64,000 nucleotides of DNA from Cyanobacteriota bacterium (GTDB taxonomy: Bacteria > Cyanobacteriota > Cyanobacteriia > Cyanobacteriales > Nostocaceae). The DNA lies in contig JBJOKS010000003.1 in NCBI GenBank assembly GCA_046045965.1, positions 165,127 through 229,126 on the forward strand. Direction: 5' to 3'. The position numbers and the translations under genes are program-made. This document shows, piece by piece, positions 26,183 to 33,080 of the stretch (position 1 is its first letter; every line of letters starts with the position of its first letter). The notes beneath the pieces were generated by a model. The model worked only from the letters and a program-made list of their open reading frames with translations. It ran no database searches and was not told the DNA's origin.

Positions 26183-26443
26183 AAACAATTTTCTCCTGGT
26201 TAAAGCTTTCTAATATCAGTATAAAGGTTGGAAGAAAAAGTAACATCTGTCCTTGAAAGGATATATCATCAAAAATATTCATACTTTGACTTCTATATTT
26301 AGAATGTAACAAGTGCAAAAATTAAGTTTACAATGGGAGGTTGCACCGAAAATTCCATCACCATAGTTATACCTATGGTTGTTCGTGAATTTTCCCGATT
26401 TTACTAATTATTGATGCTGCTATCATCAACTGTATTGGCGAAG

Positions 26444-26962
26444 ATGAAACATACTCTTTCTGTTCTTGTAGAAGATGAAGCGGGGGTTCTGTCCCGCATT
26501 TCCAGTTTATTTGCGCGACGTGGCTTTAATATTGAAAGCCTTGCTGTAGGTCCTGCTGAACAGGGGGGAGTTTCCCGCATTACGATGGTTGTACCTGGTG
26601 ACGATCGCGTGATTGAACAACTCACAAAGCAGTTATATAAATTAGTTAATGTCCTGAAAGTACAGGATATTACAGAGATTCCTTGTGTAGAGCGGGAATT
26701 GATGCTTTTAAAGGTGAATGCTACCAGTAGCAACCGTTCTGAGGTGGTGGAACTAGCTCAGATTTTCCGCGCTAGGGTTGTGGATGTGGCGGAAGATTCT
26801 CTAACTTTGGAAGTGGTTGGTGATCCGGGTAAGATGGTAGCGATCGTGCAAGTGTTGCAGAAATTTGGTTTGCGGGAAATTGCACGCACGGGTAAAATTT
26901 CGCTTCCTCGTGAATCTGGTGTTAATACTGAGTTGCTGAAGTCTTTGGAAGCTAAGGTTTAG
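26444..26962 (+). CDS. ilvN: Acetolactate synthase small subunit
   Basis: [42 protein letters not shown]. Confidence 0.96.
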
Positions 26963-26991
26963 TTTTCAGCTATCAGTTATCTAATTTTTAG

Positions 26992-27023
26992 ATCCCCGAT
27001 TTCTTTGAGAAGTTGGGGATTTT
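26992..27023 (+). terminator. Hairpin downstream of ilvN (dispersed palindromic repeat or terminator)
   Basis: ATCCCCGATTTCT-TTG-AGAAGTTGGGGAT followed by TTT. Confidence 0.55.
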
Positions 27024-27257
27024 GTGGTGTGTTAAGTTTACGTGATTTTTCTTAATTTATCTTTATTGATAGAAATATAAATGTAACACAAGTTAAGTAA
27101 ATTCTACATATTATTTGCTTCTAATTGTGATTTAATGAAGGTAGTATTATAAATACACAGGTTGAGTATCTGCACAGTCTCAGCCATTAAAAAGCTGTTT
27201 TTAAACTAAATACGTAATAAATTATTATACTCGTTTCACAATCATAGAGAATGATAT

Positions 27258-29774
27258 ATGTTTCCAACCAATCAACCACTAAATTATCAATTCCTCCTGC
27301 TAACACATCTAGTTTGTGCAGATCAGCAGATCCACTCAGAAGAAGCTCAAGCTTTGCGTGACTTAGCTCAAGCAGCAAATATTGAAGAAAACACTTTACT
27401 AGAGATGGAAAAGATTTTATCTCAAGAAGATAAACATCTTTCTCTAGAATTAATCGCGGGTAAAATTCCTCATGGTCAGCAAACCGAGACAATGCGACAA
27501 TTATTAACAATGGCGCATATTGATGGTTATTTTGCACCTTTAGAAAGAGAAATGATCTATTATAAAATAGGTCAAGTTTGGCATTGGTCAAAAAATGAGA
27601 TAGATAAAATAATTCAAGAAGCGAAAAGTAAACAAACACAAAAAAATCATAAAAATAATAAAGATGAAGAATTATCCTTAGCGGCTAAGTTTTTGGAAAA
27701 TGAATATAAATCAGGTTTATCACGTGCCATCATTAATTTAGTTGTCAAAATTTCTCCTGATTCTATTAAAGAAACAGTTTCAAAATTAGAAAGAGAAATA
27801 TTAATTAAAGGACCAGAGTATGATAAAGCCATAGAACATTGTAGTAAAATTGCCAGAGAAGATTATGATTTTGCTTTTAATGCACTTGCTCAAGTTGATA
27901 AAGCCCTCAAAGATTTAGCCAAAAATCTGGAAAATACTATTAAGCAAATAGAAAATAGAACAAATAATAAAGGTCAAGCTAATACGGCGAAAGAAGTAGC
28001 TCAACAACTAGATTATAGTAGAAAAGCATTAAGAGAAGATATTATTAAAGAATTATTACTTGTTCGTGAGTCTCTATACTCTAAACAACGAGCATTAAAT
28101 CATTTTAGTATTGCTTTTATGGGCAGAACTAAAGCCGGAAAAAGCACATTACACGCTATTATTACTAGAGAAGGTTGGGATGCTATTGGAGTGGGAACAC
28201 AAAGAACAACTCGTTTAAATAGGGTTTATGAATGGAAAAATATCCGCATTATTGATACTCCTGGTATTGGCGCACCTGGGGGTAAAAGTGATGAAGAAAT
28301 AGCGAAAAGTATAGTTGATGAATCAGATGTAATTTGTTATGTCGTTACTAACGATAGTATCCAAGAAACAGAGTTTCAATTTATGAAACTTTTGAAAGAG
28401 AAAACCAAACCATTAATTATTTTACTCAATGTTAAACATAATTTGCGTGATAGTCGGCGTTTAGAGCATTTTTTGAAAAATCCCAATAAGCTATTTGAAA
28501 TGGAAGGTAATAGCGGTATTGGTGGACATTTTGAGCGTATCCATCGCTATGCAAAACAACAATATGCAAATGATTACTTCTCAATTGTTCCTGTAATGTT
28601 GCTTGCTGCTCAGATGAATAATGAGCCAGAACATCAAGAAATTAAAGATAAACTATTTAAAGCTAGTAGAATACAAGATTTTCTAGATTCTATTCGGGAA
28701 TCATTAGTTAAATATGGTGCAATTAGAAGATCACAAACTTTATTAGGTTCTACAGTGGGAGCTATTGATTCATCTTATAAATGGGTAAATAAACAAATTA
28801 ATATCTATGAACAGTTAATACAAACACTGAAAAATAAACGTGAGGAAATTAAGAGAAAGATTAAAAAGGCTGAGGATGATATTTATAGAAGTTTAAAATC
28901 AGACATAGATTCAATTTTTGTCAATGCGATTAATAGTATTCAACTATTTGCAGAAAAACATTGGAAATATGATCAAGAAAGTTTAAATGCAGGTTGGCAG
29001 AACCATCTGAAAGAAATTAGATTTCAAGAACGGATTCAAGCAGCTTATGAGGATGCAGGGAAAAAGTTTAATAAAGAAGTTCAAGAAGTAATTGCTGAAG
29101 TGGGTACTGAATTAGAATTAATGGCTACACTTAATGTTGGTAAAGATTTTAAACTGAAAGAAGATGATAAAAAATCTTTTTGGACTAATCGAGGATTTAT
29201 TACTGGTGTTATTTCTGGAGTAGCCGCACTATTGATTTTTTTACCTGGAGGAATTCCTGCTATTGCTGCTCTACCTTTTCTTGCTACAGCTATTGGTAGT
29301 ATCACTTCTTGGTTTAAATCTGAAGATCAAAAGCGGCGTGAAGCCGTGAATAAAATTAGGGAATCCCTAACAGAACAATTAAATAAAAATAAAGATAAAG
29401 TGAACTCTGATTTAAAGAATAGTTTTACTAATTACTGCGATTCTGCCACTACAAATATTATACAATACTTTGATGAATTGATAGGAGGTTTAGAAGCAAT
29501 TAACCAAAATCTCAAAACGGCAAATAATCATATAAATCTTGCTAATAATTATCTTAATCAAGCCTATGCTAAAAGAATCATAGATTGGAGTGTTGACAAA
29601 TATGAACAGCTAACCGATGAAGGAATCAAAAATACAATTTCTCAAGTTGATCATCAATTTGGGCATAAACTCACAATTCATACCAAACTAGAGTTAGATA
29701 TTCGTAAATCTCAATCTGATATTCAAACAATATTACAAGAAGATATTGTAATTAAATTCCCAGTTAATAATTAA
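27258..29774 (+). CDS. TerB-like domain fused to a dynamin-like GTPase (LeoBC-like)
   Basis: N-terminal CADQQIHSEE...AHIDGYFAPLERE (TerB-type acidic motifs); G1 GRTKAGKST, G3 DTPG; long helical stalk with a hydrophobic hairpin near aa 650-685. Confidence 0.75.
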   Translation: MFPTNQPLNYQFLLLTHLVCADQQIHSEEAQALRDLAQAANIEENTLLEMEKILSQEDKHLSLELIAGKIPHGQQTETMRQLLTMAHIDGYFAPLEREMIYYKIGQVWHWSKNEIDKIIQEAKSKQTQKNHKNNKDEELSLAAKFLENEYKSGLSRAIINLVVKISPDSIKETVSKLEREILIKGPEYDKAIEHCSKIAREDYDFAFNALAQVDKALKDLAKNLENTIKQIENRTNNKGQANTAKEVAQQLDYSRKALREDIIKELLLVRESLYSKQRALNHFSIAFMGRTKAGKSTLHAIITREGWDAIGVGTQRTTRLNRVYEWKNIRIIDTPGIGAPGGKSDEEIAKSIVDESDVICYVVTNDSIQETEFQFMKLLKEKTKPLIILLNVKHNLRDSRRLEHFLKNPNKLFEMEGNSGIGGHFERIHRYAKQQYANDYFSIVPVMLLAAQMNNEPEHQEIKDKLFKASRIQDFLDSIRESLVKYGAIRRSQTLLGSTVGAIDSSYKWVNKQINIYEQLIQTLKNKREEIKRKIKKAEDDIYRSLKSDIDSIFVNAINSIQLFAEKHWKYDQESLNAGWQNHLKEIRFQERIQAAYEDAGKKFNKEVQEVIAEVGTELELMATLNVGKDFKLKEDDKKSFWTNRGFITGVISGVAALLIFLPGGIPAIAALPFLATAIGSITSWFKSEDQKRREAVNKIRESLTEQLNKNKDKVNSDLKNSFTNYCDSATTNIIQYFDELIGGLEAINQNLKTANNHINLANNYLNQAYAKRIIDWSVDKYEQLTDEGIKNTISQVDHQFGHKLTIHTKLELDIRKSQSDIQTILQEDIVIKFPVNN

Positions 29775-29787
29775 GGAGCTAAATATT

Positions 29788-31533
29788 ATGCTACCAGGAC
29801 AAAGAAAAATCCAAGCTGCTGAAGTTGTTAATCATCTTAACAATTGCTATAAAAACCTGAATCAATTACTATTACAAGGTGATAATCAAGAATTACTGCA
29901 AATTCGCCAAAAAATGATTAACGAATTAGAAGATTATCGCAAAGATGGTATTTTATCAGTTGCTTTTGTGGGTCAATATAGTGCAGGTAAATCTACAATA
30001 ATTTCCGCCATTACTGGTCAAAGGGATATTAAAATAGATGCGGATATAGCGACTGATGAAACCAGTAATTATTATTGGGAAGGAATTAATTTAATTGATA
30101 CTCCTGGACTTTTTACAGAACGTAAAGATCATGATGCTATCACTTATGATGCTATTCATAAGGCTGATTTATTAGTTTTTTGTTTGACATCAATGTTATT
30201 TGATTCCATAACAATAGAGAACTTTAAAAAATTAGCTTATGAAAAAGGTTATCGTTGGAAAATGATGTTAGTCGTTAATAAAATGTCTGATGAAGCAGGA
30301 GATGATGAACAAAAAATAATTAATTATAGTAAAAGTCTAGCAGAAGCATTAAAACCTTATGAAATAGATGAATTTACTCTCTGTTTTATTGATGCTAAAG
30401 ATTATTGTGAAGGTATAGATACAGACGATGATTTTTTAATTGAAATTAGTAGATTTGATAGTTTTACTGATTCTTTAAATAATTTTGTTGATAGTCGTCG
30501 TTCTCTTGCTCGTTTAGATACACCAGTGAGAATAGTTTTGAGTGGAATTAATGACGCACAAATTTGTATCAGTCGTGATAATAATGAAGATACAGCATTT
30601 TTTGAAATTCTCAAACGGTTATCTCGTACAGTAAACCAAGAACGAGAAAGACTGAGAAATAAAGTCAAAAATATTGCTTTAAACTTATTTTCAGCAGTCA
30701 CCAATGAAGGAACAATACTAGCTTCAGTATTGGGAGATGAAAACTTTGAAATTTGCAACCAACAAACAGAAATTAATGTACGTACTCACTATGAAAAAGC
30801 TACCAATGATATGGAATATTGTATAAATGATGCTTTTTATTCTATTCAGAAGGAAATAGAAAGTGTTTTTAATAGCGATTTAGTCAAAACATTTGTGAAT
30901 AGATTGCAGTTTCAATATGAAGTTTATGCAGAAAATTCCGATGATGGTATAGATTTAAAGAATATAGTTGGACAAATTGAAGAATTATCAAAAATTGGTG
31001 AAAAAATAGGTATAAACCCATTCAGAAATAATTGGACAAATACCTATCAAGGAGAGGGATTTTTACGTTCTATGGATGTTGCAGGTAGTCAGCTACATTA
31101 TTCTGTACGTTCAGTAGGAGAGTTTCTTGGTTATAATTTTCGACCTTGGGAAGCGGTTAATTTGGCTAAAGATATTGGTAACTCTTTTATGATTATTGGT
31201 AATGTTGTAGCAGGACTAGGAGTATTAGCAGAAATTTATCAATTATATAAAGAAAGTAAAGCTGAGAAAAAATTATCTGATGCCCGTTTAAATATTACCA
31301 GCCAATTTATCAAAATGGGGGAAAGTTTAAAAGAACAGATTAATGAACAACTTGCAGAAATTGAAATCCAACTGTATGGAGAAATTGAAAATCAAATTGC
31401 CGAAGCTAGAAGGAAACAAGAGGAGTCCATAACATCTGCTAATAAAGGGATGCAAAAACTGACACAGATTAGACATGAGTTAGAATCTATTTTGCAAAAA
31501 ATTACAAAAGCGTCAACAAAATTAGTAGGATGA
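29788..31533 (+). CDS. LeoA-like bacterial dynamin-like GTPase
   Basis: VAFVGQYSAGKST, LIDTPGL, HDAITYDAI..ADLLVF, NKMSD, FRPWEAV before a hydrophobic segment; AGGAG RBS in the 13-nt gap. Confidence 0.8.
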   Translation: MLPGQRKIQAAEVVNHLNNCYKNLNQLLLQGDNQELLQIRQKMINELEDYRKDGILSVAFVGQYSAGKSTIISAITGQRDIKIDADIATDETSNYYWEGINLIDTPGLFTERKDHDAITYDAIHKADLLVFCLTSMLFDSITIENFKKLAYEKGYRWKMMLVVNKMSDEAGDDEQKIINYSKSLAEALKPYEIDEFTLCFIDAKDYCEGIDTDDDFLIEISRFDSFTDSLNNFVDSRRSLARLDTPVRIVLSGINDAQICISRDNNEDTAFFEILKRLSRTVNQERERLRNKVKNIALNLFSAVTNEGTILASVLGDENFEICNQQTEINVRTHYEKATNDMEYCINDAFYSIQKEIESVFNSDLVKTFVNRLQFQYEVYAENSDDGIDLKNIVGQIEELSKIGEKIGINPFRNNWTNTYQGEGFLRSMDVAGSQLHYSVRSVGEFLGYNFRPWEAVNLAKDIGNSFMIIGNVVAGLGVLAEIYQLYKESKAEKKLSDARLNITSQFIKMGESLKEQINEQLAEIEIQLYGEIENQIAEARRKQEESITSANKGMQKLTQIRHELESILQKITKASTKLVG

Positions 31534-31605
31534 AAAAATTGTATCTATTTTCGATACTCTCTTCTTCCTCTCTTCCTTCGTTTCTTCGTGTCTTCGTGGT
31601 TTATT

Positions 31606-31702
31606 AAATCCTGAAAATCCTAAAATCCTGGACATCCTGATTCAGACAAAAAAAGAGGCAGAGCCTCAAAAAAAGCATTCCTAGTCAGAGACTAGGAACG
31701 AG
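31606..31702 (-). repeat. Partial composite repeat (REP-like hairpins plus AGGAT-rich terminal repeat)
   Basis: Reverse-orientation match to the start of the 37406 and 38553 elements: TTCCTAGTC-AGA-GACTAGGAA, GAGGC-AGA-GCCTC, ATCCTGGACATCCTGATTC. Confidence 0.75.
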
Positions 31703-31709
31703 ATGGAAA

Positions 31710-33080
31710 CTAACCCAACTTAATAGTTTTCGTAATCACCGATAAACTTTCCTCAAACAAAGCCTCACGACCCCAACGTTGCACCTGCTGACTTAACAAC
31801 ACCTCCGGCTTTTGTTCAGCAAGAGAACTAACTTGTTGGAACAAACCAGCAGCTTGAGCGCCACCTTGAGTTTCCATTCGCATACAACCGCCGGTTTCAG
31901 TACAAATGAGAGTACCGCAATTAGCTTGAGGATTAGTAGAATTGAGACGCAAAGCGATCAAATCACCAACAATTTCACCCACATCGGCAACAGGAACACC
32001 TGCTAATTCTGCCTCTATTTGTCTTTGGTCTTTAGATACAAAAGTAATGCTGGTAATATCATAATCACCACATTCCTTTTTGTAAGAAACAGGTTGCCAT
32101 TCTAACCGACTTGCTAACCAACCCAAATACAATAAAGCTTGGGCTGCGTTACCTTTTTCATAATCAATAGTTACACGGTCAATTTCTGTTAAAGCTGCCC
32201 GACGTTGGGGTGCATCATAAGCTTCAGCAGTTAATTCTTGCCATGCGGACAAACGCCGCCAATTTAAATCAGCCAAAGGTACACCAGTTTCTGCCAAATC
32301 TTGCAAAGTTAATAAATCACTTTCTGGAGAATTAAAATTACAAGAATCAACAATCACATTATTACAAACTGCTGCCAATCGTTTGAACAAAGGATTATTA
32401 GAATCTGGCGTAGCTTTCCACCACAGAAACTTAGGTAAACCGCCAATTAACAAAGCCGGAATCATGCCGCCAATGCGTTCCAAAGCCGCAGCAGTACCAG
32501 TCAGGGTAATGTATTCACAACAAATCAAAGTGCTGGAAGATTGCTTTTGAATGGGGCAGTATGCTGAAACTTGTGCCTTAACCCCTTCATCTTCACCCGC
32601 AATGGGACATAAAGCGATAATTCGGCAAGGGTTACGCAGGGCAATTTCATCAGCAATTGTAGGACTGGTAGGACTGAAAGTATAGCCCATCGCCGCACCA
32701 TGACTAGCTCCATCCGTGCCACTGTGCTGAAGTTTGAAGTATTCTTCCCGCAGAATAGTGATAGTTTCTGGTGTGGGAATGCCGGTTTCTGGGAGTTCAT
32801 GTTGTTTTTGAAGTTCCCGCAGTGAGGCTTGGGTTTGAGGTCCCAAAATCCCATCAATAGGACCATTATAAAAACCAGTCGCTGCTAATAAATACTGGGT
32901 TTCTTCCGGTTCATAAACCACTAAAGTAAAAGTAGTCGCACGGGTAGCAGCAGGTAAACCGCCGTCTTCGCCTTGGATGCCGTAACTTTGCCAGATTTGA
33001 TTAAGTTCGTTCTCAATGTCATTGAGAGAAACATCCTTGGGGGCTTGCAGGGAATAAATTGTAGAAGCTTGGGGAGCCAT
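31710..33080 (-). CDS. opcA: Glucose-6-phosphate dehydrogenase assembly protein OpcA
   Basis: Follows zwf; NPCRIIALCP, VSAYCPI, DLNWRRL; internal PG-binding motif GFYNGPIDGILGPQT. Confidence 0.95.
   Translation of the reverse strand: MAPQASTIYSLQAPKDVSLNDIENELNQIWQSYGIQGEDGGLPAATRATTFTLVVYEPEETQYLLAATGFYNGPIDGILGPQTQASLRELQKQHELPETGIPTPETITILREEYFKLQHSGTDGASHGAAMGYTFSPTSPTIADEIALRNPCRIIALCPIAGEDEGVKAQVSAYCPIQKQSSSTLICCEYITLTGTAAALERIGGMIPALLIGGLPKFLWWKATPDSNNPLFKRLAAVCNNVIVDSCNFNSPESDLLTLQDLAETGVPLADLNWRRLSAWQELTAEAYDAPQRRAALTEIDRVTIDYEKGNAAQALLYLGWLASRLEWQPVSYKKECGDYDITSITFVSKDQRQIEAELAGVPVADVGEIVGDLIALRLNSTNPQANCGTLICTETGGCMRMETQGGAQAAGLFQQVSSLAEQKPEVLLSQQVQRWGREALFEESLSVITKTIKLG

Follow-up and report, generated by a model that had tools for sequence, protein, structure and literature searches.

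A TerB domain and a probably reduced KH-like tail on the LeoBC protein of a cyanobacterial Eleos gene pair

Introduction

In a genome of the Nostocaceae (Cyanobacteriota bacterium, assembly GCA_046045965.1) two adjoining genes for dynamin-like GTPases are located between ilvN and opcA. They raise the question whether the pair is an anti-phage system, and what a TerB domain at the front of the first protein contributes to it. The window that we analysed is a stretch of 64,000 nucleotides of contig JBJOKS010000003.1, to which all positions refer. The first open reading frame (ORF1; 27258–29774, forward strand) encodes 838 amino acids (aa) and the second (ORF2; 29788–31533, forward strand) 581 aa. 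An earlier note, made from the letters of this stretch, had proposed a variant of the Eleos or LeoABC type. Eleos is the name given in 10.1101/2022.12.12.520048 to the 'Dynamins' system. The pair from Bacillus vietnamensis NBRC 101237 gives protection from two jumbo phages, AR9 and PBS1, for which the P-loops of both proteins are required (10.1101/2022.05.11.491447). We found that the cyanobacterial pair is a real, intact member of Eleos (LeoBC–LeoA). Whereas the system itself is known and already called by standard tools, the TerB cap and the probably reduced KH-like tail on LeoBC appear to be new.

An intact pair of the Eleos type

Both proteins are recognised by the PADLOC models of Eleos. 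ORF1 matches LeoBC (PDLC03841) with an E-value of 6.8e-112 (residues 188–800, profile positions 7–579 of 601), and ORF2, which follows directly downstream in the canonical order, matches LeoA (PDLC03839) with 1.2e-116 (residues 9–574). The idea that the TerB fusion might escape existing Eleos models is not supported, as ORF1 scores 373 bits and a Bacillus LeoBC 371, though TerB is not covered by the model, whose match begins only at residue 188. The AlphaFold model of ORF1 (mean predicted local distance difference test score, pLDDT, 70, with low values at the hairpin and in some of the G domain) found only dynamin-family chains among its seven Foldseek matches with E ≤ 0.001 (BDLP 2j69, IniA, LeoA 4aur, mitofusin). 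From the N- to the C-terminus ORF1 consists of TerB, a helical neck, the G domain, a stalk, a membrane hairpin and the KH-like tail. For ORF2, profile A4 finds E. coli LeoA first in the PDB (4AUR, E 3.9e-15), in an alignment that includes the F-K/R-P-W motif, and Pfam DLP_helical lies above its cut-off; the sequence thus points to a dynamin. Together with the conservation described below, these matches bear out the proposed Eleos/LeoABC-type pair. A complex prediction for ORF2 1–345 with ORF1 186–838 (score 0.03) gave no answer, neither for nor against pairing.

The GTPase domain of ORF1 (28098–28727, forward strand; MMR_HSR1, E 1e-14) is its most conserved part, with 83% mean pairwise identity. 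It carries G1 GRTKAGKST (residues 289–297), G2 QRTT, G3 DTPG (333–336) and G4 NVKH (391–394). The corresponding motifs of ORF2 are GQYSAGKST (62–70), DTPG (104–107) and NKMS (164–167), followed by FRPWEAV (451–457) and a hydrophobic stretch at about 462–487. All motifs and hydrophobic segments quoted in the earlier note are present. The P-loop GxxxxGKS is intact in 91 of 91 LeoBC rows and 55 of 55 LeoA rows. The G4 of ORF1 had been singled out as non-canonical, but such variants are shared by the whole family. LeoBCs in general, those of Bacillus too, have N-[VI]-K-x, and every LeoA row as well as the Bacillus LeoA has NKMS, which rules out G4 as a special feature. A hydrophobic hairpin (paddle) at about residues 643–686 of ORF1 (29184–29315, forward strand) is a likely membrane anchor. 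Its Kyte–Doolittle 19-mer means reach 2.15, and profile A7 aligns the region with BDLP 538–668 (E 0.006); weak coiled-coil matches in the same search were disregarded as noise.

With the B. vietnamensis system the pair shares two tandem dynamin-like GTPases with LeoBC first, near-full-length model matches, intact P-loops, the same G4 variants and a patchy distribution. ORF1 differs in about 185 extra N-terminal residues that contain TerB and lie outside the model, and the present copy is not in a defence island. Furthermore, Bacillaceae LeoBC homologues end in KH1–KH2, whereas ORF1 ends in one KH-like domain without GxxG. LeoABC of enterotoxigenic E. coli H10407 (PMC4159319; 4AUR) provides the best solved relative of ORF2 and has the F-K/R-P-W motif before the paddle and the tandem layout in common with our pair. 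There, however, LeoBC is split into LeoC and LeoB, TerB is missing, the G4 of LeoA is NKMD rather than NKMS, and the role shown for it lies in vesicle release. DO-GTPase systems (PMC7159879) were set aside as a comparison; their architecture is another one, and the passages available mention neither TerB nor dynamin.

The TerB cap

The earlier note had placed a TerB domain, fused to the LeoBC-like subunit, at the N-terminus of ORF1, and this was confirmed (residues about 8–125; 27279–27632, forward strand). In the whole protein the Pfam match stays below the cut-off (E 0.0036), but the isolated domain exceeds it (25.6 bits, cut-off 24.4), and PF05099 is precomputed on most ORF1 homologues. A profile of the domain finds the Nostoc TerB-like protein 2OU3 in the PDB (E 1.4e-4), and a wider profile finds 2OU3 (2.9e-4), PG1108 (0.006) and TerB 2JXU (0.29). 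The modelled N-terminus also has the TerB fold, matching 2ou3 with a middling score (VIA: Z 8.0, root-mean-square deviation (rmsd) 6.3, 134 residues aligned). The Atlas returned TerB clusters at 0.89, which are a lead only.

Acidic motifs of TerB are of the A/D-D-G-x5-E type, and metal binding is known from TerB folds. In ORF1 the two motifs are represented by D22/E29 and D89/E96, accompanied by C20 and H26. The four acidic residues are at least 90% kept in 42 rows that have a mean column identity of 38% and include relatives down to about 30%. This conservation suggests that the TerB cap is likely a metal-binding regulatory input; that it acts as a sensor is plausible by analogy with other defence systems. 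TerB is also found in membrane-linked defence by Bunzi, Shango and DinB of Dionysus (10.1101/2022.05.11.491447; 10.1101/2025.09.30.679545), and Dionysus, like Eleos, targets jumbo phages. Its target there is the early infection vesicle, and it does not work without its TerB gene; the same source describes TerB as amphitropic and predicts a dimer for DinB (10.1101/2025.09.30.679545). These systems are without a dynamin-like GTPase, whereas in ORF1 TerB is fused to the motor itself.

Anantharaman et al. reportedly surveyed TerB fusions in 2012 and may list TerB–GTPase fusions, and the supplements of the Millman preprint are said to list family members, cyanobacterial ones included. In the literature searched apart from these two sources, including passages of 10.1101/2024.10.26.620412, we found no description of TerB or KH on LeoBC. 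The clades of Jilly et al. (PMC5827413) are presented without mention of TerB in the text passages, as distinct from the supplement.

The C-terminal KH-like tail

The earlier note did not contain a small alpha/beta domain at the end of ORF1 (residues 766–833; 29553–29756, forward strand). It has the order alpha-beta-beta-alpha-beta and is modelled with a pLDDT of 94. When compared with 48,161 chains (VIA), it matched archaeal NusA (2cy1; Z 5.0, rmsd 3.3, 64 aligned) and KH1 of Mycobacterium tuberculosis NusA (2asb; Z 4.9, rmsd 4.8, 71 aligned), both with weak Z, and type II KH folds occupy much of the list. Foldseek gave E-values of 0.25 or above, a direct comparison of the tail sequence with PDB and Pfam found nothing significant, NusA is absent from the 60 best matches of profile A7, and the Atlas returned nothing useful (0.75). 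Pfam PF26594 we take to be the NusA-like KH family.

A KH tandem forms the C-terminus of LeoBCs from Bacillus, Paenibacillus, Klebsiella and other bacteria. The tail of a Bacillus homologue (P0238) aligns with residues 221–338 of Thermotoga maritima NusA with an E-value of 8.8e-7, the KH1 loop being deleted and the GxxG of KH2 kept. Using hhalign, the ORF1 tail matched the KH1 half of nine such tandems with E 0.026 (best of 30 shuffles 0.062) and that of 53 tandems with E 3.6e-4 (best of 40 shuffles 0.015). Distant tails of the TerB clade were matched with E 3.4e-7 and a probability of 93% (best of 30 shuffles 0.068), a score to which the preceding core helix contributes. The likeness to NusA KH1–KH2 (1HH2, 2ASB, 2CY1) consists in the type II KH-like topology and in the motifs VxRxxG...I and LQExV, which align with KH1 by way of the Bacillus LeoBC tail. 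The ORF1 tail differs in that it is one domain with the GxxG loop deleted and without S1, and the link is indirect, with Z about 5. While 43 of the 53 KH tandems keep GxxG in KH2, the loop is found in none of 56 rows of ORF1-lineage tails, the net charge of which is about +1.4; the pattern [ILV]-G-[KR]-x-G likewise does not occur in the tails of 41 distant representatives. From model and sequence, the ORF1 tail is likely a single, degenerate NusA-type KH1 domain that lacks the GxxG RNA loop, whereas other LeoBCs keep two KH domains. Such a remnant would likely serve as a protein contact or structural cap and not as an RNA clamp.

Exchange of domains at both ends of LeoBC

A quick IQ-TREE analysis was made of LeoBC cores (76 rows), with LeoA as an outgroup on long branches and with branch support only from the Shimodaira–Hasegawa-like approximate likelihood ratio test (SH-aLRT); L096 was removed by the motif filter, and the rows included neither E. 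coli LeoB nor Klebsiella. The TerB/KH1 forms constitute one clade (99), which is sister to the KH–KH clade (99). The tail-less cyanobacterial forms nest inside the latter (96). The simplest reading of these sequences is that the KH tail is ancestral, was cut to KH1 in the TerB lineage and was lost in the other cyanobacterial lineage. The tree presents a trade-off, TerB plus one loop-less KH versus no TerB plus two KH, which recommends the natural variants for domain swaps.

The termini of LeoBC are swappable slots. In front there is TerB, TPR repeats (L133), an extra GTPase domain (P0262) or another cyanobacterial domain; behind there is KH–KH, KH or YbjN. Since the TerB slot is taken by other domains in sister forms, the pattern is that expected of an exchangeable input module. 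LeoBC and LeoA are also found fused in a single chain (P0073, L133, L134).

Several individual proteins illustrate the range of these architectures. Five cyanobacterial LeoBCs (P0262, P0263, P0269, P0281, P0285) have a second small GTPase domain at the N-terminus, and YbjN stands behind the KH-like tail at L165:967-4002 and L175:389-2905. One genome (G037) has two single-chain fusions, with a TPR cap (L133:9520-14652) and with a TerB cap (L134:8060-12253). Another (G278, L174:2096-8050) has a divergent form close to genes for DNA polymerase: a protein of 1341 aa contains two GTPase domains, and the gene after it (605 aa) is a third one of the dynamin type. In a further genome (G057, L132:1333-4026) a TerB domain 66% identical to that of ORF1 is located on a different protein of 898 aa, which ends in a GUN4-like domain and matches PADLOC PD-T4-6 (E 8e-31); a TIR-like gene adjoins. 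The TerB cap thus moves between proteins.

Distribution and mobility

The earlier note had weighed universal conservation as a housekeeping pair; occurrence proved to be patchy, with the LeoBC model in 54 of 301 family genomes and the TerB profile in 21 of 301 class genomes (on a LeoBC sequence in 20 of these 21). The 30 best loci of the LeoBC-model family survey comprise 19 with TerB, all with a tail, eight with another cyanobacterial N-terminal domain, in which no tail was found, and three other forms. Two of three same-genus genomes yielded no LeoBC–LeoA pair of the TerB subfamily; G003, of the same genus, has a different, TerB-less Eleos elsewhere in the genome. From 281 confirmed loci in GTDB we evaluated the best 80, ranked with a query that contained TerB and therefore biased the count of TerB (80 of 80, in frame with the G domain in 77). 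The tail is present in 70 of them and LeoA follows LeoBC in 71, eight of the other nine ending at a contig edge. ORF1 is intact in 64, some of the others being cut by contig ends.

The pair had been called a cyanobacterial variant, but its range is probably wider. In a search of 1.8 billion representatives, TerB–LeoBC made up 50 of the 54 listed matches of at least 500 aa, down to 28% identity. Among 41 full-length TerB–LeoBC representatives 25 have a GARP/FYMINK value above the cyanobacterial range, and this residue make-up suggests that hosts beyond the cyanobacteria, with high guanine-plus-cytosine (GC) content, probably exist. A phage collection gave no match, and a scan of metagenomes for the surroundings of a distant member yielded none that could be confirmed.

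Richelia sinica FACHB-800 carries a 90% identical pair at another locus, beside fusA, and a mobilizable Pseudanabaena plasmid carries a copy of the pair beside a Tn3 transposase. In run X4 a cassette 97% alike stands after ilvN and 941 other letters, and departs from our sequence at 31534, directly after the LeoA stop. Therefore, the LeoBC–LeoA unit is mobile and ends at the LeoA stop.

The ilvN–opcA locus

The gap between the two genes measures 13 nt. The AGGAG ribosome-binding site of ORF2 (29774–29778, forward strand) begins in the final base of the ORF1 TAA stop, and its GGAG ends 9 nt ahead of the ATG. The GC content is 31.4% in ORF1 and 30.7% in ORF2, compared with 38.1% in the genome and 44–45% in ilvN (26411–26962, forward strand) and opcA (31710–33080, reverse strand); values as low occur in 4% of 729 long frames. 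Arrangement, gap, AGGAG and AT-richness were all as the earlier note had described them. Its island with a meaningful right-border repeat did not hold up. Outside the system, the interval 31555–31705 holds repeats that are scattered over the whole genome, and on the opcA strand it has two terminator-like hairpins. About 180 genomic blastn matches fall on 31611–31650 and about 38 on 31660–31700, and a similar dispersed element with about 40 matches lies on the left side (26985–27025). The repeat therefore marks no insertion and was ruled out as an insertion scar. Taken together, the two intervals harbour several repeat families with tens to about 180 genomic matches, some with terminator-like hairpins. 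A local repeat search at the locus found chance-like families only, and a promoter scan found 24 candidates with 24.4 expected.

That the genes were inserted between ilvN and opcA is borne out in part only; an empty ilvN–opcA site was not found in three same-genus genomes and 29 other opcA 3' flanks. In G001 the synteny of ilvN and opcA is kept, with a 1704-aa histidine kinase in between; in G002 and G003 ilvN is not linked to opcA. Neither ilvN nor the end of a LeoA was seen in any of the 29 flanks (up to 1.5 kb), almost all of which are different from one another. On these genomes and flanks we dropped the reading of ilvN–opcA as a conserved junction that has an empty form; the opcA 3' flank is an operon end that varies, not an established hotspot.

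Proposed function and alternatives

We propose that the LeoBC–LeoA pair defends against large phages at the membrane, with TerB as a likely metal-binding regulatory input, and put the probability of this at about one half. ORF1 would sit in the cytoplasmic membrane by its hairpin and recruit the more soluble ORF2. Both would then form GTP-driven hetero-oligomers that reshape or seal the membrane at the site of phage entry or at an early phage compartment, and TerB may couple a local membrane or metal-ion change to this assembly. Insertion into the membrane, assembly of the two proteins, defence and sensing are all deduced from the Bacillus pair that was tested, from Dionysus and from LeoA, which is inactive alone and for which a heterodimer was proposed by the authors (PMC4159319); by the same analogy the present pair would have anti-phage activity. 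In favour of this proposal we count the protection given by the Bacillus pair, the LeoBC and LeoA E-values, patchiness, mobility, the fusions, the conservation of acidic residues in TerB, the exchangeable slot and the parallel with Dionysus.

Several observations weigh against this proposal. The neighbours of this copy are housekeeping genes. A convincing PADLOC defence gene within three genes was found at about 9 of 80 loci (L025, L030, L040, L048, L051, L054, L069, L072 and L077), a count made without a control, on 227 cluster representatives of 1031 ORFs and with many short contigs; weak PADLOC matches to Uma2-like, TnpB-like, kinase, PolA, GlgB and TPR proteins had been dropped beforehand. 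For the family, a defence association of 60% is reported in 10.1101/2022.05.11.491447, possibly counted over a different neighbourhood. With 65% against 62%, TerB varies no more than the neck helices, hence it shows no sign of an arms race. As many LeoBCs are without TerB, the Bacillus forms among them, the domain is not needed for core activity. The identity to the tested Eleos is about 25% only, as judged by proxy from P0001 and the Bacillus homologue P0238. Finally, leoA and leoB knock-outs in E. coli halve the release of membrane vesicles, a non-defence role (PMC4159319).

The pair could be an anti-phage Eleos in which TerB senses nothing and has a passive part in attachment to the membrane, in dimerisation or in folding. 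This we regard as unlikely, even if LeoBCs often lack TerB (the other N-terminal domain is present at 8 of the 30 best family loci), TerB is amphitropic, DinB is a predicted dimer and the conservation of TerB resembles that of structural helices; at identities of about 30% the four acidic residues are far better kept than what surrounds them, as one would sooner expect of a ligand site than of a spacer. Somewhat less probable still is a dynamin pair that in general repairs membranes or forms vesicles under envelope or metal stress and protects from phages at most incidentally. Such a role would fit the housekeeping neighbours here and at most of the 80 loci, the effect of LeoABC on vesicles and DynA of B. 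subtilis, which protects by keeping membranes intact (cited in 10.1101/2022.05.11.491447). It would also fit transcriptome library X21, in which the LeoBC and LeoA genes of a 93% relative, flanked by other sequence, lie on one 5.6-kb contig, not shown to be RNA. The genes are, however, AT-rich, mobile, patchy in occurrence and in many cases broken, as is often so with genes for defence, and the one test made in the family gave phage-specific protection (10.1101/2022.05.11.491447).

The trigger might also be the KH-like tail instead of TerB, mimicking NusA and binding a phage protein, phage RNA polymerase or RNA. A tail on both sides of the deepest LeoBC split in the tree, the match of the Bacillus tail to NusA KH1–KH2 and the GxxG kept in KH2 of most such tails would agree with this. 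We nevertheless consider it very improbable, because the ORF1 lineage has lost KH2 and every GxxG, its tail carries little net charge, and a whole cyanobacterial clade is without the tail. As an extension of our proposal, Eleos may be a modular membrane-surveillance machine, in which a constant two-dynamin motor is combined with sensor slots at both ends of LeoBC; in the present form the TerB metal site would detect the ion or membrane disturbance caused by the entry of a large phage and replace a decayed NusA-like RNA sensor. This idea is speculative and rather improbable.

The mechanism of Eleos is stated as unknown in 10.1101/2022.05.11.491447, and how TerB domains help defence as unclear in 10.1101/2025.09.30.679545. 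Both questions become testable in a lineage that has TerB and Eleos in one chain, keeps four acidic residues in TerB and carries a KH remnant that can be deleted. The gain lies in mechanistic leads and not in a new system, since standard tools already call Eleos. The added domains are leads of this kind, and the significance is moderate only.

Genes near related loci

Genes of the HTH-NB-ARC/NACHT-TPR type (L025:1683-3776 and relatives) are located upstream at 14 of the 80 loci, mostly in Microcoleus, and related genes also flank L132 and L134. A small hydrophobic ORF with the motif CGRWGC stands between LeoBC and LeoA at several loci (L023:12508-13014, L045:12547-12993, L068:12605-12919); neither Pfam nor PADLOC recognised the two copies scanned. 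At the same opcA 3' flank in G002, of the same genus, a HEPN gene and a ParA–ORC/CDC6 fusion adjoin opcA (L130:11123-14238). These genes match PADLOC PDC-M28A/B/C and the HINPO layout of 10.64898/2026.10.19.760177.

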